Source: Eledone cirrhosa (taxonomy: Eukaryota). From it: a stretch of 64,000 nt of DNA. Both the position numbers and the translations under genes were made by a program. The stretch spans positions 200,508,001-200,572,000 of the forward strand of contig OZ024742.1 in the NCBI GenBank assembly GCA_964016885.1, written 5' to 3'. Below the pieces are notes generated by a model, which had not been told where the DNA came from, ran no database searches, and saw only the letters and a program-made list of their open reading frames with translations. Shown here in pieces: positions 5,302 to 59,018 of the stretch; position 1 is the first letter of the stretch; each line of letters starts with the position of its first letter.

Positions 5302-6103
5302 TTGTTACATAATAAGGTTATGTTTCCGAGGCAATCCAAGTTAAATCGACATGGGAACGGACGAAGTGTGTGCTTTTGGGTTCTTCATCCGTTCCCCTGT
5401 GAGTACCAATTCACCCCCACCGATCTGCGCAGGCGCATGTCCAAAGGAAGTTGACCATTAGCTACCGCAGATTTCAACGAAATTCGCTTAGACAGTTCAC
5501 CTTCTCAGCCAAACGATGACCCATTTAGGCCTGTACCATAGTTTACTGCTACCCATCCCGACTGTGGCAGTCAGCCGAAAGCCAGAGGAGATGGGAGAGT
5601 GTTAGTTTTTACAGGTCACAATACTACCTCTCACCAAGCGTGGACATTACGACTGACCATCAACTCCCAAGAGAAAATATACTTAATTCTAGGTATCATG
5701 GTTTTACATTGGAAGTTATGAGTGAGAGTTGGAAATAAAAATTAAAATCCTAAATCAAAAATCAGAAATTATAAATTAAACAATAAAAGCATTAACAATT
5801 AGAAATTAAAAAATGTTTCAAGTGAGAATCCGGATTGAGGCGAGTAAAAAAACATATAGATTGAAGTGAGTAAATAATATGAAGAGAGATGTTTAAGTAA
5901 GAAGTTCTGAGAGGGGTTCCAATGTCACAGTTACTCTATCCACATATTGAACGATAGTGCCGTACATTAGAACGGAGGGTAAACTACAGTATTCAAGGCA
6001 GTAGTCAATCTGGTACACAGTCATAATTTCCATCACATGGAACAAAACCAAAGAAAAACATATATATATATATATATATATAACTGTATATATATATAGA
6101 TGA

Positions 6104-6152
6104 GATTCTACAGGACTAGAACTGTTTCATTTTTTAGAAATCATCAGGAATC
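6104..6152 (-). ncRNA. Minimal type I hammerhead ribozyme in a small palindrome
   Basis: GAUUC-CUGAUGA-UUUCUAAAAAAU-GAAA-CAG-UUCUAGUC-CUG-UA/GAAUC; core repeated inverted at 6152-6175. Confidence 0.75.
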
Positions 6153-6204
6153 TGATGATTTCTAAAGAATGAAACGTATATAATATATATATATATATAT
6201 ATAT

Positions 6205-7719
6205 ATTGTTATACTTTGGGAGGGTCATGTTGCCAATAAGAAACACACGCACCAGTTGCTTTCACTTCAATTTATTATATATTTATAAATTCATAAATTT
6301 ACAAATCTACAAACTTATAAATTATAAATTTCTGGTTGGTTGGTTGGTTCCACAACCAGATAGTTGTTTATATATATAGTCATAGTCCTTTCGTCACACA
6401 CTCTGTGACCTCTTCAGTGACTGGGGATTCCTTTCTTCGTTTCTGTGCCTTTTCTTTCTTCTATCCTACGCCATTTTGTTTCTGTGTGTGTGTTGTGTGT
6501 CATGGTAAATAATGACATAAATGGGACCTGCCCCTTGTATAGGAGCAAATTTTGGAATAGAATAGAAAGAACTAGGAACAAGGCCAATAGAATAAACTCA
6601 TGGTATGATAGCAATAAATACCAGAGTGTAATGTTCATCAATACAACCCCTAGAGGCGAACTAGCCTACAAATTTAGAAAGGCCCTAAATAAACATAATC
6701 TCAATATTAAGATAGTAGAAAGACCTGGTACCTCCGTAAAAGCACTTATTAGCAAGACATACCCGTTCCAAAGACCCTCATGTATAGATAAGAAATGTAT
6801 AACCTGTAAAATAAGCCCCCATATTAACTGTAAAACTAGAAATGTAGTGTATAGCATAAGATGTACTGAAGGACAATGTAGAAACAAAAATATAGTGTAC
6901 ATAGGTGAGACAGCTCGTAGTATAGGGGAACGAATAAATGAACACTGGCGAGACCTCCAAGATAATAAAGAATCATCTGTGCTCTACCAACATGCTAAGA
7001 TAGAACACAGGGGTAGATTAGAGAGCATAGAAATAAAAATAGAATCCACGCACAGAAAAGACGCAATGTTTAGGCAAATTACAGAGGCAGTAAGCATAAA
7101 AGAATTAAAACCAAAATTAAATAGAAAATATGAGTGGAACAGCAACATCACAACTTACAATTAAGGACAAAATGAAAACACACACACACATAGAACAAAC
7201 AACTTAGAATTGAAAACACACACAAAATGAAAACACACACAGGACAAAATGAAAACACACACACACATAGAACAAACAACCAACCAACAATAAATAAATA
7301 AACAAATAGAAAAATGAACACAAACACACACAGACACCCGGATGTGGCACATGCGCAAACTGAGCACACAACACACACACAGAAACAAAATGGCGTAGGA
7401 TAGAAGAAAGAAAAGGCACAGAAACGAAGAAAGGAATCCCCAGTCACTGAAGAGGTCACAGAGTGTGTGACGAAAGGACTATGACTATATATATAAACAA
7501 CTATCTGGTTGTGGAACCAACCAACCAACCAGAAATTTATAATTTATAAGTTTGTAGATTTGTAAATTTATGAATTTATAAATATATAATAAATTGAAGT
7601 GAAAGCAACTGGTGCGTGTGTTTCTTATTGGCAACATGACCCTCCCAAAGTATAACAATATCGGTTTCAACACACGATTTCAGATAAAGAATCTTGCTAA
7701 ACAAATTCAGAAACGAAAT
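6205..7719 (+). mobile_element. 5'-truncated Penelope-like (Neptune-like) element with inverted pLTR
   Basis: Open frame to 7164 with CIDKKCITC linker and GIY-YIG (VVYSIRC..VYIGETARSIGERINEH); 6205-6499 is the reverse complement of 7365-7659 (295 bp, no difference seen); flanked by (TA)n. Confidence 0.92.
7442..7486 (+). ncRNA. Type I hammerhead ribozyme in pLTR (inverted twin at 6378-6422)
   Basis: AGUCA-CUGAAGA-G-GUCACA-GAGUG-UGUGAC-GAAA-G-GA-C-UA/UGACU. Confidence 0.75.
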
Positions 7720-18377: not shown

Positions 18378-19372
18378 AAATGTGTGTAATCCTTGGTACA
18401 GTTAGATATATTAAGACAGGGGGGAAGAAAAAATGGCTTCACTTGTGCTTTCAACAAATTTATTTTCTTCACAAAATCCAAAAAGAATTTTTTTCTCTTA
18501 AAAAAATTTATTTTATAAATTAAGTTAGGTCTTAGGAGTTCTTGGTTAACGTAGGAGGTATTGTTTCGTTTTTAGAACGACCTTTCACGCTGAGGTGCGC
18601 TTGTCAAACTGATGTGTATGTGGTGTGTTGTTCTATATATAGGGATTTAACATGTCTGTGGTGTGGTGGAGGGTTTTTTCTCCCCCTTTTTAATAAGTGT
18701 ATGGGTGTAGGTGTGTTGAAAAAGTGTTAATAGCAGTAATGAGTTGAGACGGTGAGTAGGGTTGGGTGGGGAGAAATGTAGCAAGTGCGGCCTGCCCCCG
18801 TCATTCTCGAAAAATTCCTTTATTCAGAGGATTCCTTTGTGTTGAGAATGGTCACAGGCAAATCGCACCTGCCAAGTTTGTAAACAATTATTTTTTTCTG
18901 AAGAATTTTTCTACGTCCATCCCAAAATTAGTCCTTTGTTCAACACACACATATGTGCGTATACACGTACATACACACACGGGCATATGTAGGAATATAT
19001 AGGCACACACCATCAATCACACACCCATGTACATATACATTCACATACATACACAAAAACATATAAAGACACATATAAAAACACATATACACATACGTAC
19101 ACACACGAATATGTACTCATACCTCCACATGGGTATATATATATATACATACATACATATAGATACATATACACACATAAAGATACATAACTAAATATAC
19201 ATATATACCCATACACGCACACATACACACACACACACACACACGTGTACATACACACAGACACACACACACATATACATATGTCCGTATATATACCTCC
19301 GTTCACACATACATGCATACACACACACACATACACACATACATATATATACATATATATAGAGAGAGAGGC

Positions 19373-20023: not shown

Positions 20024-23000
20024 TACACAAACATACACATACATACATATATATATATATATACATATATATACACACATACACATATATATAATATATA
20101 CACACACACACATCCAAACATACACACATCCATACATACACATACACATACACACACCCACATACATATATACCCCCACGTACATACATCCATACATACC
20201 TACACACATATATGTGTGTGTCTCACCGTTCACTCAGATATTCATGTGTACACATAAGAAGAGGGTGGGGGGGGGGGTAGTGAAATGGAATTTTACCTCC
20301 GAGTGTTAATTCATTTTTTCGTGTTCAGTAGTGGTTTAAATTTTTCAATGAAGAATTCTTCTTTATATCTGCGGAAATGTTCGTTATCCGACCATATCTT
20401 GAAGAAAGGGAAGATTGTGAATTTTCCCTTCCCGCATGATGCAAAGTGTGCGCTACATGTGGTATTTCTGACTGTGGGGTCTTTAATTTGTTGTTTATGT
20501 TCCCGGACTCTATCATGTAATCCCGTCCGGTTTCCCCAATGTAATACTCTTTACACTGTGGACATGTTGCGCAATATATTAGGTTTTTCGTTTTGCAGTT
20601 CATGTTTGCATTGACCTTGAAATTATCATGGTTTTTGAAGGACAACTGTTTGCCCTCTTCGATGAGTTCACAGGTTCCACATCTAGAGTCCCCGCATTTC
20701 GTCACTTGCATTGATTCCATGTTGGTCGTAAATTTTGCCTTGGTAATTGGTTTTTTACGGTTTGGTGCTTGGCGTCTGCTATAAATTATCTGTGTGTTTT
20801 TTAAGAGTGCATTCATTTTGGTAGATTGCTGTAGAATCGGGATATACTGCTTAGCAGTTTTCACAATGTTGATTTTCCCTGCGTTGTGAGTGATGACAAA
20901 AGAGATAGCAGGGTTTTCTTTTTTATGTTGTGGGTTTGGTTTTCTCAGTGTTGTTATTGGGATGTTCTTAGCCTTGGAGATGGCTGCGTTGATGAGTTTC
21001 ATCGGGTATTCTTGTTTTTTAAGGAATTTTTTCAGGTCACATAATCTTTTTTCTTGTAGTACGGGGTGTGTTGCTATAGTGCAGATGCGCCTTGCCATGT
21101 TGAAGGGAATGTTCCTTTTCGTATGTGAGGGGTGTGCTGACCAGAAATTTAAGTATTGGTGTGTGTCAGTGGGTTTGCAAAGTAGGTCCGTTATGATATT
21201 TTCCCCTTCTTTAATGATGAGGATATCTAGAAAGGGCAGTTCCTTTTCGTTACATTCCATAGTGAATTGTATAGCTTCATGAAGCCTGTTTAAGATCGAA
21301 TAAAATTTGTTGTAGGTCTGTTTGGCTTCTGTTCCAGAAGATGAAGCAGTCATCTAGGTAACGTTTCCAGTTTTTATTAATGTAGAAGGCGAAGTCGTGA
21401 CTAAATGTTATCTGTAGTTGGGAATATAATTTTGCCTCTAAGTGACCCATAACGAGCGTTGCATATGTAGGGGCCACTTTGGTACCCATGGCTGTTCCTT
21501 TTATTTGTAGATAAAGTTCGTTTTCAAAGAGGAAGTGGTTGTTTTCCAATACTAATTTAAGTCCTTCCAAGATGAATTCTTTGGGGAATCTTTCTGAAAT
21601 GTGACTTGAGTGTTTTGTAATCCAGAAGTCCACAGCTTCAATCCCTAGGTCGTGTGGGATGTTAGTGTACAGGCTTATTACATCAAAACTGACTAGGATT
21701 GTATCCTGGTGTACTTTTTGGGGGATATAGTTAAGGAATTCCATATCATCTCTGATGTAGCTTGGAACTTTTTTACATAGGGGCTTGAGTATGATGTCTA
21801 ATAGGTTGCTAAGACGTTGTGTGCTTGAGGCTGGGCCAGCAATAATGGGGCGTAATTTTAAGTCTGTCGGTTTTGGTGCTTCGATGTATGATGTATTTTT
21901 CCCTTTTATGTTGTTTTGGATTTCTATGGATTTGTGAATTTTTGGTAATCCATAGAAATTGCTGGTTTTCATTTCGAAGTTGGTTAGGTAATCTACTTCT
22001 TTTGGTGTTAGGTTGTTTTGGTACTTTGTTGTTAGTTTGCCAATTTGGTTCCTCGATTTCCTTTCTTCGTTTTTAGTGATTTTCCTGTAGAAGTTTTCGT
22101 CATTCAAGTGTGCTAGAACCATATCTTTGTAGTGGTTTGTGTCCATGATGACGATTGTTCCACCTTTGTCCGCTTCTTTTATTATTATTGAGGAATCCCT
22201 TTGTAGCTTGTTCAATGCTAGTAGTTGGTCTGTAGGGAAGTTGCGTTTGTGTTTCGTCTCGGCCGTATTTGTACGTGCTGATCGGCGAAGGCAGGTTATG
22301 TATTCCTCCAGGTATTTATCTCTATTTAGCGGGGGTGTGAAGTTCTTTTTGTTTTTCACCAGTGATTCTTCCTCGTATTGTACACCCTGGAAGAATTCTC
22401 CTAAGCGTAATTTTCGACAGTATTCTTCTGTGTCTTTTATAACATCGGCTGTATCTGCTTTCGGGGTGGGAGTGAACTTCAGTTCATTTTCTAACAGTTG
22501 TATTTCTGGTTGTATTAATTTCTTGGCTGATATATTGATTATTTTTGGTTCGATTGGTTCTTTCTCGTCAGGTGCCACTTGAAAGGTGGTGCTTTTTTCT
22601 TTTTTTCTTTCATTTGGTGCGAGGCCCCTAGTCCTAAAAAATGGGTGCCATTTGGGATAGGGGTGTTTCTGTTGTGGTGAAACCTTTGGCCCGCCGGAAC
22701 TTCATGCCGGTAACTGGTTGGGCGATAGATTCTTGCGTGGTCGTTGCTGTATGGGGGTCTGGTTCTTCTGTTGTTTCGTTCAGTATTCATGTGTCTTTGA
22801 TTTTGTCTCCGGTAATTGTTCTTGGTGTTATGGCAGTGGTTGTATCTGGTTCTGGTGTTGAGTATTGGGTCTGTATGTAGTTGTGTGTTTGGGGTTACCC
22901 AATATCTGGTTGTTGTTGGTTTATTGTGTGTGGGTGCTTCATTTCTTGTGTTGTTGTATTTTCCTGAGTTCTGGGGTTTCCTATGGGTTTGTTTTCTGGG

Positions 23001-23793
23001 TTTTATTTGGTCTTTCCCATAGTTATCTTCATATTCTTGAAGCCATTGAGTTCTTGACTCCAAGATTTTCTTTGATTTTAACTCCTCTCTAGTTGTATCT
23101 GTCTGCCATAGGTTAAGGAGTTTTTCACGTACATTGCCGCTGCTTCTTTTGTTTATTTCCTCTTGGATGGTGGTGCCGCATTTTTCAAATTTCTCTTTGA
23201 ATTTTGTGTGTATGTACGTATATACGCACATATGTGTGTGTTGAACAAAGGACTAATTTTGGGATGGACGTAGAAAAATTCTTCAGAAAAAAATAATTGT
23301 TTACAAACTTGGCAGGTGCGATTTGCCTGTGACCATTCTCAATACAAAGGAATCCCCTGAATAAAGGAATTTTTCGAGAATGACCGGGGCAGGCCGCACT
23401 TGCTACATTTCTCCCCACCCAACCCTACTCACCGTCTCAACTCATTACTGCTATTAACACTTTTTCAACACACCTACACCCATACACTTATTAAAAAGGG
23501 GGAGAAAAAACCCTCCACCACACCACAGACATGTTAAATCCCTATATATAGAACAACACACCACATACACATCAGTTTGACAAGCGCACCTCAGCGTGAA
23601 AGGTCGTTCTAAAAACGAAACAATACCTCCCACGTTAACCAAGAACTCCTAAGACCTAACTTAATTTATAAAATAATTTTTTTTAAGAGAAAACATTTTT
23701 TTTTCTAATCCGGAAAAAAATTCTTTTTGGATTTTGTGAAGAAAATAAATTTGTTGAAAGCACAAGTGAAGCCATTTTTTCTTCCCCCCTGTC

Positions 23794-24114: not shown

Positions 24115-25866
24115 TTAGACAAATGCATCTTTTGTAATGGAGTATGATCTTTTGATGCTTTCGTGTTTCAAAACGAGTTTGATCATCCAATCATGTGATT
24201 CCCTTAGATATGTAGATAATCCAATTGTTGCAGTTTTCAACGCAATATCTAACTGGATTAACCCACGTCCTCCTTCTTTCCTAGGGAGATATATTCTATC
24301 TGTATCTGCCTTAGGGTGATACATTCTGTGCACGGTTAAGAATTTTCTAATTTTTGTATCAAGCCTACGGATCTTTGTGCTTGACCAGTTGATGTCATTG
24401 TAACTGTAGGTTACTACTGGTATGGCAAGCGTGTTTATGGCATCGATCCTATTCCTTGCATTCAATTCCGTTCTTAAGATTGCTCTTACTTTGCGGTAAC
24501 ATTCCTTCCTTATCCTTTCCCTAATTGTCGAGTGCTTGATTCCGTCTCCTTCACAAACATCTAGATATTTGTAAGTTTCCTCTTGATCAAGTTCTCTTAT
24601 CACATTCCCCCGATCAAGATTAATGTCTGAACTTTTCAGCAGCTTTCCTCTGGTGAACGTTGCTTTGGCGCATTTATCTAGTCCAAACTCCATTTTAATG
24701 TCATCACTGAACTGCTCCACAGTGGATAATAGCCCTTGCAATTGTTCATCATTTTTTACAAATAGTTTCAGGTCATCCATGTAGAACAAGTGATTAATGG
24801 TTTTGTCATAGACTTTATATCCATGTTTTGTTTCATTGAGCATTTTACTTAATGGTATACGTGCGATGCAGAATAAAAGCGGTGATAAAAAGTCACCCTG
24901 AAAAATTCCACAATTAATATTAACTTCTCCAGCTTCCAGTGATTTTTTTTCACTATTCAAATGGAGTGTCGTTTTCCATGTCTTCATACTGAATGACAGG
25001 AACCTCCTGACAACGGGGGATATTTTGAAAATCTCTAAACATTTTTCAATCCAACTGTGTGGCAAACTATCGAATGCTTTTTTATAATCTATCCAAGCAA
25101 TTGATAGATTTTTGTGTCTATTATGACAATCTTCCAGTATCATTTTGTTAAACAAAAGCTGATCCTTACAGCCATATGAGCCTCGTTTACACCCTTTCTG
25201 CTCATTGGGAAATAGGTCATTTGTTATCAGGTGGTCATATGTATATTCAGTTAGGACTGATGTTAACATTTTATACATTGTAGTCAAGCAAGTTATCGGT
25301 CTGTAATTTTTGGGATTGTTTGTCTCATCATTCTTCGGAAGCAGGAATGTAATGCCGTTAACTAGCCATGAGGGTATCTTTTCTGGCTCCTTAACTATTT
25401 CATTGTAAAGTTGGGCTAACAGCTCATGAGACTCTGTGAAGGCATTTATCCAAAAATTTGGTATTTTGCCTTTTTCTGGGGATTTCCATTTGCTGGTTTT
25501 TCTAAGAGCCAAACGTAACTGTTCAACTGTTATATTTTCCTATATTTGTTCCTCAAGGTGAGCTGTATCTTTCATTTGTCTGTCTACCCATGGGGCATGT
25601 ATATTATGAACTTTTTCTTCGGCCCAGATCTTTTCCCAGAACTCTTGCACTTCCTCCTTGGGTGGTATTGATTTAGCAGTTATTGTTGACTTGCCAATTT
25701 TTCTGTAGAAGTTTCTTTGGTTGTTTTTGAACATATTATTGTCCTTATAGAATCTAGATCGTTTTTCAAAGCGCCTTATACGAGCAGCTTTGGCCGACAC
25801 TTTTTTCTTGATTATTTCTATCAGCATGTCTATGTCACTTGTTGATTTTATACTGTATTTTCTTTT
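24115..25866 (-). mobile_element. R4/Dong-clade non-LTR retrotransposon RT fragment
   Basis: NYRPITCL, EQKGC..GCKDQL, WIDYKKAFDS, GIFQGD, HLFYMDDLK, GGRGL; in-frame stop at 25540; 5' junction at (TAA)n. Confidence 0.9.
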
Positions 25867-30011: not shown

Positions 30012-30174
30012 ATGTATGTATACATGCATGATGTATGCATGTATGTTTTAATGCATTCATTCATTCATTCATTCATTCTTTCTTTCTTTCTTTCTTTCCT
30101 TCCTCATGTATTCTCTTCTACTCCGTCTCCAGATTTCTCTCCTTCTAACACTCCTTTTTATGTCTTTCTTTCAG

Positions 30175-31231
30175 TGCAGATGGTGACTTTGTCATCACGA
30201 TGACAGCAACAAAAGCCACCGTATACCATACCGGCAAAATCTCCTGGGAACCTCCGGCAATCTATAAAACATACTGTCCAATAGACGTGGAATACTTCCC
30301 GTTCGACATACAGCAATGTGTAATGAGGTTTGGTTCTTGGACATACAGCGATCAGGAAGTTGATTTGGTTCACTTCTGTCACGAGCAAGGAACGAACACT
30401 ACGGATGGAAACATCATGAACTTCATGGGAGTTGATTTAAAAAGTTACCAGCAAAGTGTCGAATGGGACATTTTGGATGTCACTGCTGTTAGGGTCGCCA
30501 GACGTTATACTTGTTGTCCTGTAGCCTACATTGATATTAGATTTATTTTGTTGCTCAGACGGAAACCCTTATTTTATACTCTGAATCTAATAGCTCCCTG
30601 TGTTTCAATTTCGTTATTAACAGTTATGGTATTTTACCTGCCATCAGTCACTGGAGAGAAGATCACGTTGTCCATATCTGTGCTACTAGCACTTTCTGTG
30701 TTCTTTTTGCTTCTAGCTGATATAATTCCACCTACCTCACTTGTTATACCCCTAATCGGCAAGTACCTCATGTTTACCATGTTTATGGTGACAGCGTCTC
30801 TCTTTTTAACTGTATATGTTCTCAATATTAACTATCATAAACCAACCACGCACACCATGTCGAACTGGGTGCGTTATTACTTGCTGGAAAAACTCCCACC
30901 TTATATCTGGATGAAACGACCTGACATCAACGAAAAACCTCTCGCTGAAATTGGCCAAGTGGCCGTACGAACGATGAATGGGATGGAAGTTCGTGAACTA
31001 ACATTAGAGCCGAACACTTCATCTTTGCTTCGAAGCGACGTACATACGTACGAAAACATGCGGGACCGACATCCAACGGAAGAAATGGAACCATCGAGTT
31101 GTCATCAACATCAAGCCGTCGAAAATCCAGTTCATTATGGATCCACTAAAGATGTGAAAGTCGTCAAAGACATCATTGACAACATCAAATATATTGCTAA
31201 CCATATGAAGGAATCAAACGAAGATGAGCAA
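30175..31231 (+). CDS. nAChR alpha subunit, large exon (Cys-loop, loops B/C, M1-M3, cytoplasmic loop)
   Basis: ttcag|T GCA GAT GGT (N-ADG); Cys-loop CPIDVEYFPFDIQQC, GSWTY, loop C YTCC (alpha type), RRKPLFY, GEKITL cation-type M2; donor CAA|gtgagt. Confidence 0.97.
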
Positions 31232-31282
31232 GTGAGTTAGTTATTTACAGATGATTAATTATATATTGAATAATTATATTAC

Positions 31283-50124: not shown

Positions 50125-52566
50125 ATATATTAATAAATGGAACCTATATTTATAAAACCATATTTATTTTATTATATATATTTCAAGGGCAACCAAAGCA
50201 AATTATGGTGCGCTTTCATCAGATAAGATACAGATTTGTTTTATAAATAAATATTGACATGCCCGGAAAAAGACAACCTTAACGGTTGCAGCTTCCTGGA
50301 TAGTGGAGATAATATTTTATTGAGGGTAATACAAAGTTATGAGTGAGTATGCAAATGAGTGTCCGAAACGTTGAAAAGATAACGGTTTATTTAAATTAAA
50401 CTGCTAGAAGGGGATGATATGTAAGGGAGAGAGAAAAAAAAAGAAAAAAAGAAAAGGAAGGAGAAAGAGAGAAGAGGAAAGAAAGAACGATTATACAAAG
50501 TGATATTGAAGAAAGTCAGAATGAATGAAGAAATAAGTTTTAATGGAAAAATATACATAGCGTAAATATATCTAAGTGAAAGAAGAAGTGAAAGAAGAAA
50601 TAAGATTAACGTGGAAAAATAATATTTAGAATGTAGGGTTCATTACGTTGTGATTATAATATTTATAATGATAGGTTGAAAAATTATATTAAAATTAAAA
50701 ATTAGAAATCAAAATTAAAGATTAAAATTTGACTTAATATTAAAGATTTAATTTAATAATTTAATATTAATATTAAAAATTAAAAAATTAAAAAATTAAA
50801 AATTAAAAATTAAAATTAAAACAGAAGTATTTATATTATATTAAGATGTATTAGTAATAATATATTGGTTTATAAGGATTATAAATTATTTAAATAAATA
50901 TATAGTATTTTACATTAGAGAATAATCTAGTATAGTTTATTTTATTAAAGTAAGTTTGCAAAATTATATTTATTAATAGTTGTAAGTCAAAATTTAAACA
51001 TCCAAATAATTCTAAATTTATGAAAATTTACGAGAGTTTACAAAGGAATAACTACTTAATTATATTATAAAAACAGTAAGGAAGTATAAAGGAAGTTAGA
51101 AGTGATTTTTTAAGATCTCAAATGATTCCAAGGATTAAATGTTATAAAGTTAAAAATGTTATCTTAAGAATGTAATTATAAAACATATGTTATTTTATAA
51201 GAAGTCATAAATTTATCTTAAGAATATAATTAAAACATAAACCATAGGTTATTTTATAAAAAGTCATACTTGCTATAAAGTTAAAAAAATTATCATAAGA
51301 ATATAGTTAAAACATAAACCATAGGTTATTCCACATATATATAAAAAACCTATATATAAAAATCATGTTATTCCACATATATATAAATATTTGGATACAT
51401 ATATTAAAAATGTTTGAAGATATAAAAATATTGGAAGATATGAAAATAATGTTTTTTTCATATCTTTCAAAGGAACTTTCAAAGAATTTTCTAAAACCTT
51501 CCGAAAGTTTTTCAAGGAAAATTTTCCTTAAAAGAATTTCAAGTAGTCATATAAAAAAGGTTATAATCTATTGATAAGTGTAATAATATATTTATGAGGT
51601 AGAGATAATAGAAAGCAAATTAAATATATATGAATCATATATAGATATAATCTGAAGGATGATGTTGTAGGTGGTTGGATATAGAAAACATTATGTAAAG
51701 GAGATTAACCATATATTACCTTTTATATATATATTTAAAAGTTGAGTTTAAACGATGTCTGCAAGAACTAAATAAATTATTTCGCAAATTAATAGAGTTC
51801 TTACTTTTTAGTATAAAGAATATTTCTTCAACGTAAAGGGAGCAATTTTTGGATAGAGCCGTGTATGAAGGAGCTTTGGAGATAATTTCCCAAAATAAAG
51901 AATAGTTAATAAGTTCCATAATAAACTGAATAGAGAAGTTGAAGATTTTTTACGAATATTCGCAAAGGAACATTTATGGTTGAAACGAGATTTGAAGTCT
52001 GTAGAAGTTAAAGGAATTTTCATTGGTTTTGACATTACAATTGTATACTATATTTTTAACTAAACAGTTATTATTTAGGGGACAGTTAGATTTATTTCTA
52101 CAATTACATTTATCTGATTTTATATTATTAGGAGCGGTAATATTATATTGGATATTGCTAGAGGTATTAATGCCGTTCTGGTTAGGTTTTAAGTTTCTAT
52201 TATTAATTCTATTAATATTCTGCGCTAAATTCATAGTGCTGGAATATGAGAGTTTAATAGTATGTCTATTAAAGATTGAGTAATATCTGTGTGTCTTAGG
52301 AAAGCACTTATCTAGAGCTTTAAAAAATAATTTAGCTATAGGAGTTTTAATAGTTAATGAGAAAGGGGGAGCGAACAATAATATATTTCTAGTTCTATTT
52401 CTTCTTTTGATTTTCGAGTTAGTGCAAAGTTTCCTATTATAATTATATTTATAGTTATGGTTAATTGGCACATCCTTATTATCAATGTATTTAATTTCAT
52501 TACTATAGTCTGCTCTACTTAACGATTTTTAAGCTTGTTGAATCCCAACAAATTAAATATAAACTC

Positions 52567-52570
<4 letters not shown>
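50125..52570 (-). mobile_element. 5'-truncated Penelope-like element, family B
   Basis: Frameshifted GIY-YIG region (FAPPFS, CNCRNKSNCPLNNNCL..IVY, FKSRF.NH, CRH) at 51716-52534; long AT-rich 3'UTR; HHR at 50165-50230; short inverted tail piece 52535-52570. Confidence 0.88.
50165..50230 (-). ncRNA. Type I hammerhead ribozyme (family B)
   Basis: UAUCUUAU-CUGAUGA-A..U-GAAA-U-AUAU-AUA/AUAAAAUA. Confidence 0.75.
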
Positions 52571-52634
<64 letters not shown>

Positions 52635-52635
<1 letters not shown>

Positions 52636-53122
52636 GATATTAATAAATGGAAACTATATTTATAAAACCATATTTATTTCATTATACATATTTCAGGGAT
52701 ACCACAATAAATTATGGTATGCCTTCATCAGACAAAATACAATATATAACAGTTTTACAAATAGGTTTGACGTACCCTTTTAAAATACAATCATTACTTT
52801 TGGAGGCTGTCTGGATAGTGATTTGTTTATATAATTATATAAACAAATCACTATCCAGACAGCCTCCAAAAGTAATGATTGTATTTTAAAAGGGTACGTC
52901 AAACCTATTTGTAAAACTGTTATATATTGTATTTTGTCTGATGAAGGCATACCATAATTTATTGTGGTATCCCTGAAATATGTATAATGAAATGAATATG
53001 GTTTTATAAATATAGTTTCCATTTATTAATATCGTATATCTACTCCAAAAATTTGTCGAGTGCTTTATATCAGTTATAAAAATATTTACTTGTTGTATCC
53101 CAACAACTTTAAATAGAACTTT

Positions 53123-55244: not shown

Positions 55245-55324
<80 letters not shown>

Positions 55325-55331
<7 letters not shown>

Positions 55332-56021
55332 AATGAAAGGTATATAAAGTATTGTGGCAAGAAGCCAACAGTATTCCATAATATATAAGTGACTATAGCG
55401 TCAAAATGGGAAAATAGTTAACGTAAGATGTGGGAAAAATAATATAGATTTATCCAACAGAATTTAGTGAAATCCAGGGAAAAATCAATTGAGCCTTAAC
55501 TCATGATAAAATAAAGTTTAAAATACTCATCCTTCAATTTGGGACAACTACAAATGCTCTGTATAGTCTTGAAAAAGACTATTTCACGTAAACTTTCAGT
55601 GGAGATGGTCACGGTTGGAAGACGATCCTCAGCAGAGCTCAACACGATAGCTAGATTCTCACTGATTAATATGCCAAAAAGGGAATTTAAAAGCAGTCTA
55701 GTTTAACATCATGAGTGATTATGAAAATAAAACGCACATGTGGAAAAACAGGACTGGTGACGTCAGAATGAGACGAATGTCTGTTTACATGAAACAACAG
55801 TCAAAAACATTCCGAAAAAAACTCTACAATAAGGAGTTCAGCAACAAGCAATATTATCGCGGTTTTTAAAAAAAAAATACCGGGATTAGTCACAAATAAT
55901 TTAAGCACTCTAGGAAAGAAATCCGAGTATAAATATATAAATGAAAGTATTGTAGCAAGAAGCCAACAGTATTCCATAATATATAAGTGACTATAACATC
56001 AAAATGGGAAAATAGTTAACG

Positions 56022-56023
<2 letters not shown>
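55325..56023 (-). mobile_element. Non-coding HHR-bearing unit with 80-bp direct terminal repeat (retrozyme-like or partial-tandem PLE)
   Basis: 55346-55425 and 55944-56023 differ at 3 positions; period 598 bp; internal HHR; (TA)n on both sides. Confidence 0.75.
55556..55638 (-). ncRNA. Type I hammerhead ribozyme with stable stem III
   Basis: GCUCUG-CUGAGGA-U-CGU..ACG-U-GAAA-UAGUCUU-uuuc-AAGACUA-UA/CAGAGC. Confidence 0.88.
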
Positions 56024-56093
<70 letters not shown>

Positions 56094-56454: not shown

Positions 56455-59007
56455 CGATATTAACAAATGGAAACTATATTTATAAAACCATATTTATTTC
56501 ATTATACATATTTCAAGGATACCAAGTTAAATTATGGTATGCCTCCATCAGACAAAATACAATATATACCAGTTTTATAAATAAACATTGACGTACCCTT
56601 TCAAAATGCGACCGTTACTTTTGGAAGACATAAGGATACTGGTTTGTTTATTTTAGTAAGTCGTTGTTAAGGATAAGTAAAAAGACGGAGAGAGAGAAAC
56701 GTGGAGAAAAGAAAGGGAGAGATAAATAAAGAAAAAGAAGAAAGAAAAAAAGAAAAAAAGAAAAAAGAAAAAAGAAAAAAGAAAAAAGAAAAAAGAAAAA
56801 AGAAAAAAGAAAAAAGAAAAAAGAAAAAAGAAAAAGAAAAAAAAAAGAAAAAAGAAAAAAGAAAAAAGAAAAAAGAAAAAAGAAAAAAGAAAAAAGAAAA
56901 AAGAAAAAAGAAAAAAGAAAAAAGAAAAAAGAAAAAAGAAAAAAGAAAAAAGAAAAAAGAAAAAAGAAAAAAGAAATGTAGTTTATAATTGTAATGTTAA
57001 AACTAATTTAAATTCATTTAATTATGTCGGTTCTACCTCTACAGAATTTAAATCCCGCTTCAATAATCATAAAAACTCTTTTACAGATCCAAACAAAAAA
57101 TCTTCAACTTCGCTATCTAGCCTATTATGGGACCTAAAACGAGATAATGTTGAATATTCGCTGATTTGGAATATTATTTCAAAAGCTACTCCTTTTAACT
57201 CCTCTTCAGAAAATTGTGATCTTTGTATAGAGGAAATATTCTTTATATTAAAGACCAAAAATTCCCTTAATTTAAGGAATAATTTATACAGTTGCTGCAG
57301 ATATAGATTGAACTCAACGTTTAAATATAAATATAAATTTAAAATGTAGTATAATTAATTAAGTAATTTGGTTAATATATGAAACCTGTCGATAAATCAT
57401 TAGATTCCTTCACCTTTTTCATTTTCTTTGGTTAAGTACTCAAGTATAAATTTTCTTCCTAAATATAAATATAAATATAATAAACTATTCTAGAAAAGTT
57501 TAGCCTTTCAATATCTTGAATGAAATATACGTAAGATAAATCTCTATACTAAATATATTAAACATATTATTTTAGCTTAAAATATTCTATAATATTTTGA
57601 TATCTGTAGAATCCTTGTTTTTTAAGTTATATTGATATAATATGTTATTTATTTTTTATTAGGTTTGTTTTTATTCTGATAGCTTCTCATAATTTTCAAA
57701 AGTTTATCCTTTCAATATCTTGATTAAAATATACGTAAGATAAATTTCTATACTAAATCTATTAAACATATTATTTTAACTCAAAATATTCTATAATATT
57801 TTAAAATATTTTAATATTTTGATATTTGTAGAATTTGTTTGTCTTTTAAGTTATATTGATATAATTAGATTTCCAAAATATAATCCTTTTGTATTTTATA
57901 TACTCAATTGTACTATGTAATATATTGATGTATACTTATCTCTATACGATTATGTATCTATATATGTGTATTAACATACATATACATATGTTATATGCTT
58001 TTTTATGAGTATATGTCTGTCTGTATATATGCATGAGTGACGCGTGTCTACCAATTGGGTGAAGATGCACACACATATTTATATATATATAGCTAAGAAT
58101 TGTGTGTGTACATGTACATGCTTACCCATGCAGTTTTGATTGCAGATATGCATAATTTAACAGCCATAAATGCATGAAAGTTAATCCTATATATTTATAT
58201 ATATATATACTAAACATTTTTTATTTAATAACACAAGGAATGTATAGCAGTAATAAAAAAAAATCACTTATGCTTTGTATGTATACATTATGTGCGGGAG
58301 TAGATATAATGTGTATTTTCTGAGTGTGTGTGTATATATATATTTATGTATATTTGCCTATATGTACGTGCTATACGATAGGTAATTTCTCTAGCAATAT
58401 ATATATTTTGTAATGTTTAAATTCCAATTTTTAATATATTGATCTCAATTTTTAAACTAAATATCTAATCATAATTAAACAATGATTAATTTCTCATATT
58501 ATATATGTATATTCCATTCATGAGTATTAATATTTCTAATTTTATTTATTCATTTCATCTCAATTGTTAACTCAACTTAATATGACATGACTTAAGGTTT
58601 TCGTTCTCTCCCCCTCTCTCTATCTCTATATTTCTCTCTCTTGAGTTTTTTCTCTCTGTCTGGTGGTTTGATATCTCTCTGTTGTTTTCCTCTGTTTTCT
58701 TTTTTTCTTTTTTTCTTTCTTCTTTTTCTTTATTTATCTCTCCCTTTCTTTTCTCCACGTTTCTCTCTCTCTCTCCGTCTTTTTACTTATCCTTAACACA
58801 ACGACTTACTAAAATAAACAAACCACTATCCAGACAGCCTCCAAAAGTAATGGTTGTATTTTAAGGGTACGTCAAACCTATTTGTAAAACTGTTATATAT
58901 TGTATTTTGTCTGATGAAGGCATACCATAATTTAATGTGGTATCCCTGAAATATGTATAATGAAATAAATATGGTTTTATAAATATAGTTTCCATTTATT
59001 AATATCG
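56455..59007 (+). mobile_element. 5'-truncated Penelope-like element, family B, with inverted 5' pLTR
   Basis: GIY-YIG VVYNCNVK..YVGSTSTEFKSRFNNHKNSF..CDLCIEE at 56978-57349; 56455-56765 inverted vs 58697-59007; HHR cores at 56495-56559 (-, CUGAUGG) and 58903-58967 (+). Confidence 0.9.
58903..58967 (+). ncRNA. Type I hammerhead ribozyme (family B)
   Basis: UAUUUUGU-CUGAUGA-AGG..CCU-GAAA-U-AUGU-AUA/AUGAAAUA. Confidence 0.85.
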
Positions 59008-59018
59008 TATATATATAC

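Follow-up and report, generated by a model that had tools for sequence, protein, structure and literature searches.

Within the stretch of Eledone cirrhosa DNA analysed here (64,000 nucleotides of contig OZ024742.1, positions 200,508,001 to 200,572,000; hereafter the window), a hammerhead motif lies in a short sequence bounded by direct repeats. The question raised by this locus is whether it records the reverse transcription of a circular RNA or is a truncated piece of a Penelope-like element (PLE) in partial tandem. A sequence-only reading had proposed a 598-nt circle and had set the PLE truncation against it as the alternative. We found that the two are not exclusive, because the footprints described below match what PLE-type copying of a template one unit long would leave.

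A custom motif scan located the hammerhead on the minus strand with the features ascribed to it, namely a 6-bp stem I, an 8-bp stem III with a UUUC loop, and an AUA triplet at the cleavage site, together with an intact CUGAGGA/GAAA core. The predicted cleavage position, 55562/55561, was assigned from the general hammerhead consensus. An Rfam search over the window and the element gave no match to a hammerhead family. The element was correctly described as lacking an ORF, since even in a circularised unit no ATG-initiated frame is longer than 52 codons, and as being inserted in (TA)n, which is found on both flanks of the copy. The TA tract is interrupted by a G on each side, which points to a target-site duplication of about 15-23 bp whose edges are ambiguous in TA. 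The 5' end of the partial unit is a truncation point, random in position and showing TA microhomology to the target. The positions of these features are collected in Table 1.

Table 1. Coordinates of the window copy and its parts, given as positions in the window, and of related arrays elsewhere in the genome
Feature	Position	Strand	Remarks
Whole insertion, full unit plus 5' partial unit, ~1.15 units	55331..56023	-	Non-coding hammerhead repeat family
3' full unit, 608 nt	55331..55938	-	637 nt in the subfamily; lacks ~28 nt near 55441; GC 33%
Fixed 3' end of the family	55331	-	Inferred start of reverse transcription; same register in 39/43 junction-defined loci
5' partial unit, 85 nt	55939..56023	-	95 nt of unit minus 10-nt deletion
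Direct repeat, copy 1	55346..55425	.	77/80 identical to copy 2; 598 bp spacing; E 1e-32
Direct repeat, copy 2	55944..56023	.	77/80 identical to copy 1
Probable target-site duplication, left	55310..55330	.	(TA)n, lone G at 55321; sequence read directly
Probable target-site duplication, right	56024..56044	.	(TA)n, matching interruption, G at 56035; sequence read directly
Type I hammerhead	55556..55638	-	Custom motif scan
Predicted self-cleavage site, after AUA	55561..55562	-	230 nt upstream of fixed 3' end; would-be circle ligation point
TGACGTCA palindrome	55758..55765	.	Invariant in 7/7 subfamily consensuses
Conserved predicted hairpin	55896..55934	-	Directly 3' of inferred reverse-transcription start
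47-unit, 30-kb satellite-like array	G000:C2:378112500-378142100 (L160-L164)		6.9% mean between-unit divergence
Young-subfamily loci (L230-L313), examples	G000:C2:117169600-117173300; C2:1950600-1955600; C3:279647000-279656500		

The 80-bp direct repeats reported at a spacing of 598 bp are real, but neither figure describes the unit. The full unit is 608 nt here and 637 nt in the subfamily, the spacing of 598 bp results from the 10-nt and ~28-nt deletions in a unit of the 637-nt type, and the length of the redundancy differs from copy to copy, being set by wherever copying stopped. A circle would thus be of ~637 nt rather than 598 nt. Judged from its sequence, the window copy is an ordinary mutated, decaying family member, and with its one hammerhead it would count as a monomer derivative. 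The TGACGTCA palindrome, which is CRE-like, is a candidate internal promoter element.

A search of the genome with the element gave 3414 candidates, of which 40 were scored, and the closest copies among those 40 have a 637-nt unit. Across the family the unit is 628-637 nt, a length maintained in several subfamilies up to ~18% apart. An exact 37-letter motif from the 3' end matched 478 times and a control 0 times, giving the family at least 478 exact 3' ends. For analysis of the ends, the first 100 of the 478 matches in genome order were fetched with 5 kb upstream as 99 regions, of which 98 were analysed. The 3' end is common to this set by construction, the loci having been chosen on the 3'-end motif; in an independent set picked by the internal junction, 39 of 43 loci ended at the shared 3' register. 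The 5' ends are scattered: of the 98 copies, 53 measure at most 60 nt, with 43 of these halting at a single internal TA stretch; the cleavage site is passed in 29, and 7 are longer than one unit. Copy length across the family runs from 30 nt to 47 units. The 5' flank is a TA repeat at 70 of the 98 loci, and a target-site duplication was discernible at 6, the others being masked by (TA)n.

With the 3' end fixed and the 5' end alone varying, the copies are not free permutations of the unit, as in target-primed copying, and random circular permutation was rejected. The sequence-only reading had anticipated genome-wide copies with a constant period of 598 nt and permuted starts; the period is indeed constant within each array and the 5' end does vary, but the period is not 598 nt and the 3' end is fixed. 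Its proposal that the locus derives from copying beyond one full unit is supported. Two separate insertions of the young subfamily described below (L252 and L294) end at unit position 202 and then continue into (TA)n, which marks a possible second, minor start of reverse transcription. The 5' flanks share sequence in 12 pairs of loci, and we read these as other repeats hosting insertions at TA tracts because the unit is met at differing positions. Of the sequencing runs listed, none was recorded as RNA; the unit was present in contigs of two runs of unknown kind, which bear neither on its expression nor on circles.

The family bears the insertion signature of PLEs, in that its 3' end is fixed, its copies are truncated at the 5' end and form partial tandems, and its target is a microsatellite, and we consider it very probable that this is a PLE-mobilised non-coding hammerhead family. 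Inverted arms of the unit upstream of the main copy, which are PLE-like structures, were seen at L053, L107, L113 and L301, and at 3 of 98 loci in the unbiased set. According to PMC8557442, PLEs are marked by a fixed 3' end, by 5' truncation, by a (TA)n target and by occasional inverted arms, and these features speak for a rival reading in which the element is just an autonomous PLE's truncated 3' end (pseudo-LTR) in partial tandem and no independent family. Copies of that origin would be expected to extend into a PLE ORF with no fixed period, but none of the 98 copies is joined to a same-strand PLE ORF and the period within arrays is constant. Moreover, junction-containing loci run on into the next unit, ORF-free arrays reach 47 units, and subfamilies as much as ~18% apart retain a unit of 628-637 nt. 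The comparison of sequences thus leaves the pseudo-LTR reading largely refuted, and we regard it as highly improbable.

We searched the genome for GIY-YIG domains, obtaining 10,597 candidates, and compared 50 of these loci with the unit. Those with long ORFs encode a reverse transcriptase, a CxxxxCxxC linker and, at the C terminus, a GIY-YIG endonuclease, a layout that Craig et al. 2021 associate with Neptune and Nematis elements as well as with (TA)n targeting (PMC8557442). PLEs are abundant and recent in this genome, with near-identical tandem copies (99.9% identity within one tandem pair). A U.U at the base of stem II is found in several of their hammerhead-like motifs too. No autonomous partner or pLTR homology was found in the 50 of 10,597 GIY-YIG loci, a sample far from complete, or in three window elements, and a nested stub was the sole match of a six-frame tblastn search of the unit against the PLE loci. 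Two leads were set aside. An antisense 21/23 match lay in the part of one PLE family that encodes the endonuclease; it showed no extension and scored 77.5 against 73.8 +/- 7.6 for shuffles. A loose contig end turned out to belong to a young subfamily of the unit that is more distant.

The window itself holds truncated Penelope-like elements with endonuclease-like remnants at 57000-59009 and 51200-53040, which carry dimer-type hammerheads (58911-58959, and an inverted pair at 52683-52986) and have no similarity to the element at 55331-56023. The stretch 6090-7660 contains a GIY-YIG ORF (6421-7164) between inverted repeats and, near 6090-6170, two paired hammerhead-like motifs that are decayed. 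Two reverse-transcriptase ORF fragments are found on the minus strand (21277-22701 and 24115-25539), accompanied by 525-bp inverted arms at 18455-18979 and 23205-23729. The open frame at 30149-31240 (363 aa) matches Cys-loop ion channels in both their ligand-binding and their membrane domains, with no intron between them.

We then considered whether the hammerhead of the window copy could be expected to act as a monomer. The contrast drawn earlier between its stem III and those of the other hammerheads in the window holds, as the three others each have a stem III of 3 bp. The claim of monomer activity, however, rested on stem III and overlooked a weak stem II, and on the folding predictions we consider it doubtful. 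Stem II of the window copy has a U.U mismatch at its base, followed by 3 standard pairs and a loop of ~32 nt, as against 4-5 standard pairs in the other four sequences folded. In the predicted ensemble, the first pair of this stem has a probability of 0.000. Imposing the active fold costs a predicted 5.3 kcal/mol in the window copy, from which a pair has been lost, versus 0.4 in the young subfamily; in none of the sequences folded is the active fold the predicted ground state. A U.U base accompanies weak monomer cleavage in the axolotl motif described in PMC7229834, which also renders the predicted monomer competence of the window copy doubtful.

The pattern of variation among copies indicates that the ribozyme fold is kept under selection, but with a weak stem II. 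Among core positions compared over 87 insertions, N7 alone varies freely (G37, T30, C19, A1), and the others are conserved in 83-87 of 87. In stem II, the pair 316-353 is CG in 61 insertions and TA in 9, and the pair 318-351 is AT in 46 and TA in 22; because the copies are related, these counts amount to about two covariation events. In one branch (9 of 87 insertions) stem II lacks a base at its foot. In the seven subfamily consensuses, 72 of 84 hammerhead columns are invariant as compared to 367 of 500 elsewhere (p 0.014, the sequences being non-independent). Past the fixed end, the first 60 columns form a predicted hairpin and include 52 that are invariant in the same seven consensuses. This stretch is missing from every less-than-unit copy yet is conserved, which suggests that it is needed on a template running past the start site. 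The predicted hairpin in the window copy (Table 1) is a candidate recognition element for a borrowed enzyme. Elsewhere, we observed an unrelated hammerhead tandem of ~1.8 units of 459 nt in (TA)n (L211:5510-6419), with a U.U stem II base and a long loop II, which by its sequence is a second retrozyme-like family of the same layout.

The nature of the template was approached through variants within arrays. The 169 arrays (292 units) fall into several subfamilies 4-10% apart. The young subfamily has a 628-nt unit that is ~18% from the window's subfamily and diverges by 0.3% among its 30 best matches; from array to array its period ranges over 628-633 nt. It gave 234 junction matches, its stem II is of 5 bp, and its arrays reach 9 units; for experiments it is better suited than the window copy. 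Where an allele was present in at least 5 insertions, the last two units shared it in 420 cases and only one of them had it in 73, the 73 cases being scattered and with no position-specific recurrence. Private alleles of the older subfamilies (single-unit 116 versus 17) are uninformative because their pattern matches mutation after insertion.

For the young subfamily, 56 insertions were scored with three duplicated loci dropped, and 41 were informative, having variants in overlapping units. In 29 of the 41, a variant was present in every unit covering it. In 14 insertions an array-wide variant was absent from the other sampled insertions, and is private in the sense of this sample. Six of these 14 consist of one full and one partial unit, and tandem duplication cannot account for them. 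Variants confined to one unit number 147 in this subfamily, and those present in some of the units 31; among the 31 are two-unit alternations in 4 arrays, which show duplication after insertion.

One reading of these data is that the same family, with a borrowed PLE enzyme, was copied from uncut linear multimers transcribed from homogeneous arrays that are regenerated by unequal crossover, with no circle involved. Arrays of 8-47 units do exist, and as a point against a circle the long ones (8-9 and 47 units) could yield uncut multimer transcripts; the two-unit alternation attests to duplication after insertion, and stem II is weak. In addition, PLE insertion in vitro used unprocessed RNA and hammerhead cleavage was dispensable (PMC11167929), which keeps the uncut template alive as a rival. 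With such a source, however, a new mutation in a single unit should recur at one position in sister insertions, and none does. There are instead many small lineages, each homogeneous across its units, and the covariation speaks for a ribozyme fold under selection. We thus consider an uncut multimer an unlikely template. The 47-unit array retains an intact hammerhead core in 35 of its units, and likewise begins mid-unit and finishes at the common 3' site; the other long arrays have 8-9 units. Given the mean difference between its units (Table 1), the young homogeneous copies do not come from it, and with units on their own branch it is unlikely to be a current master.

A circle could also be mimicked if the template were a hammerhead-cut linear monomer on which the reverse transcriptase jumps from the 5' end to the 3' end. 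Jumping would explain the array-wide variants equally well and would make a ligase unnecessary, but we would expect it to show at the cleavage site, either as indels or as an accumulation of 5' ends. The cleavage junction was exact in 114 of 121 young-subfamily units with 0 indels, and no pile-up of 5' ends was found there, making this template very unlikely.

The footprints are best explained, and in our view probably so, by a non-LTR retrozyme copied by a PLE endonuclease/reverse transcriptase round a circular, unit-length monomer RNA from a fixed internal start. Arrays of at least two units would be transcribed and cut by the hammerhead to ~637-nt monomers, which a host ligase would circularise, by analogy with published retrozymes. 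A PLE protein would then bind near the conserved hairpin, nick a (TA)n tract, and prime where two units meet, on an AUAU stretch of 4-6 nt. From there copying would go upstream, leaving the observed footprint that is clean across the cleavage junction and has a variable stop, often at an internal TA stretch able to pair with the target. The products would be the insertions seen, which measure from 30 nt to several units, are fixed at one end and have a duplication of ~15-25 bp, some long arrays later expanding by tandem duplication. In vitro, PLE reverse transcription begins inside the RNA, downstream of the hammerhead, at AT-rich targets (Frangieh et al. 2024, PMC11167929), and such internal initiation fits the fixed end of the family. 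Several points speak against this explanation: no autonomous partner was found in the loci compared, the active fold is not the predicted ground state of any sequence folded, published PLE priming lacked homology to the target whereas microhomology is seen here, and 8 of 9 Xenopus retrozyme dimers are reported not to have cleaved in vitro (bioRxiv 2026.07.22.740005). On a more specific proposal our judgement is evenly balanced: the copies may be a rolling-circle record, in which a PLE-type enzyme would pair (TA)n to the AUAU beside the hairpin and copy a 630-nt circle for up to several rounds, stem II being kept weak so that the circle survives. If so, the young subfamily is recent enough for in vitro reconstitution.

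Known systems share much with this family. It was rightly called retrozyme-like, for by the sequence-level definition the element is a non-LTR retrozyme, a known kind. Like the metazoan non-LTR retrozymes described by Cervera and de la Pena 2020 (PMC7229834), it has dispersed, non-coding tandem units of low GC with a type I hammerhead, in copies from monomers to multimers, and no true LTR; the probable window-copy duplication of ~15-23 bp compares with >4 bp in that account. The U.U pair at the base of helix II recalls the axolotl HHR_Amex2 (PMC7229834). Unlike the elements described there, the unit is of 628-637 nt rather than the 170-400 nt of those expressed, with a stem III of 7-8 bp and a loop II of ~32 nt. 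The vertebrate non-LTR retrozymes of Li, Clavereau and Pollet (bioRxiv 10.64898/2026.07.22.740005) have a consensus range of 51-972 bp that covers our unit, and likewise form monomers, dimers and multimers and co-occur with PLEs. In Xenopus, 24 of 57 families in that preprint have pLTR homology, whereas none was seen here in the 50 PLE loci and three window elements.

With Poseidon of Anolis (PMC11167929) and Neptune-type PLEs (PMC8557442), as presented in those papers, the family shares an internal start downstream of the hammerhead, an AT-rich target and a fixed 3' end, and with EN+ PLEs in the same sources it shares 5' truncation, partial tandems and occasional inverted 5' arms. It differs from EN+ PLEs in being without an ORF and in having no 30-40-bp optional tail as a rule. 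The start site is followed here by 4-6 nt of target-like sequence, in contrast to the non-homologous site of the Anolis enzyme (PMC11167929). The large helix III, for which no loop-loop contact is obvious, is like that of the PLE hammerheads from fungi and protists that cleave as monomers in the account of Cervera and De la Pena 2014 (PMC4209133), and with 7-8 bp it is unlike the 1-2-bp helix III of most metazoan PLE hammerheads, which act as dimers according to the same source. Plant LTR retrozymes, with a type III hammerhead in their LTRs and a 4-bp duplication, differ from this family with its type I motif and no fixed LTR, as does an autonomous PLE with a reverse transcriptase and GIY-YIG ORF between pseudo-LTRs, since no ORF is joined to any of the 98 copies.

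The model of spreading by a circle plus a PLE enzyme was put forward for metazoan non-LTR retrozymes by Cervera and de la Pena in 2020 (PMC7229834), and the spreading of animal retrozymes is still termed unresolved in the 2026 preprint (bioRxiv 2026.07.22.740005). Li, Clavereau and Pollet favour unequal crossover for tandem growth, in a main text that is without an analysis of ends or of within-array variants. Across the literature covered, mostly outside subscription journals and supplements, we found no report of a fixed start together with array-wide variants for animal retrozymes. As compared to PMC7229834, both are shown here. The nearly undiverged young subfamily offers material for a direct test of the mode of spreading, and the family as a whole, with its fixed start, private array-wide variants and clean junctions, provides countable genomic support for the mode proposed.
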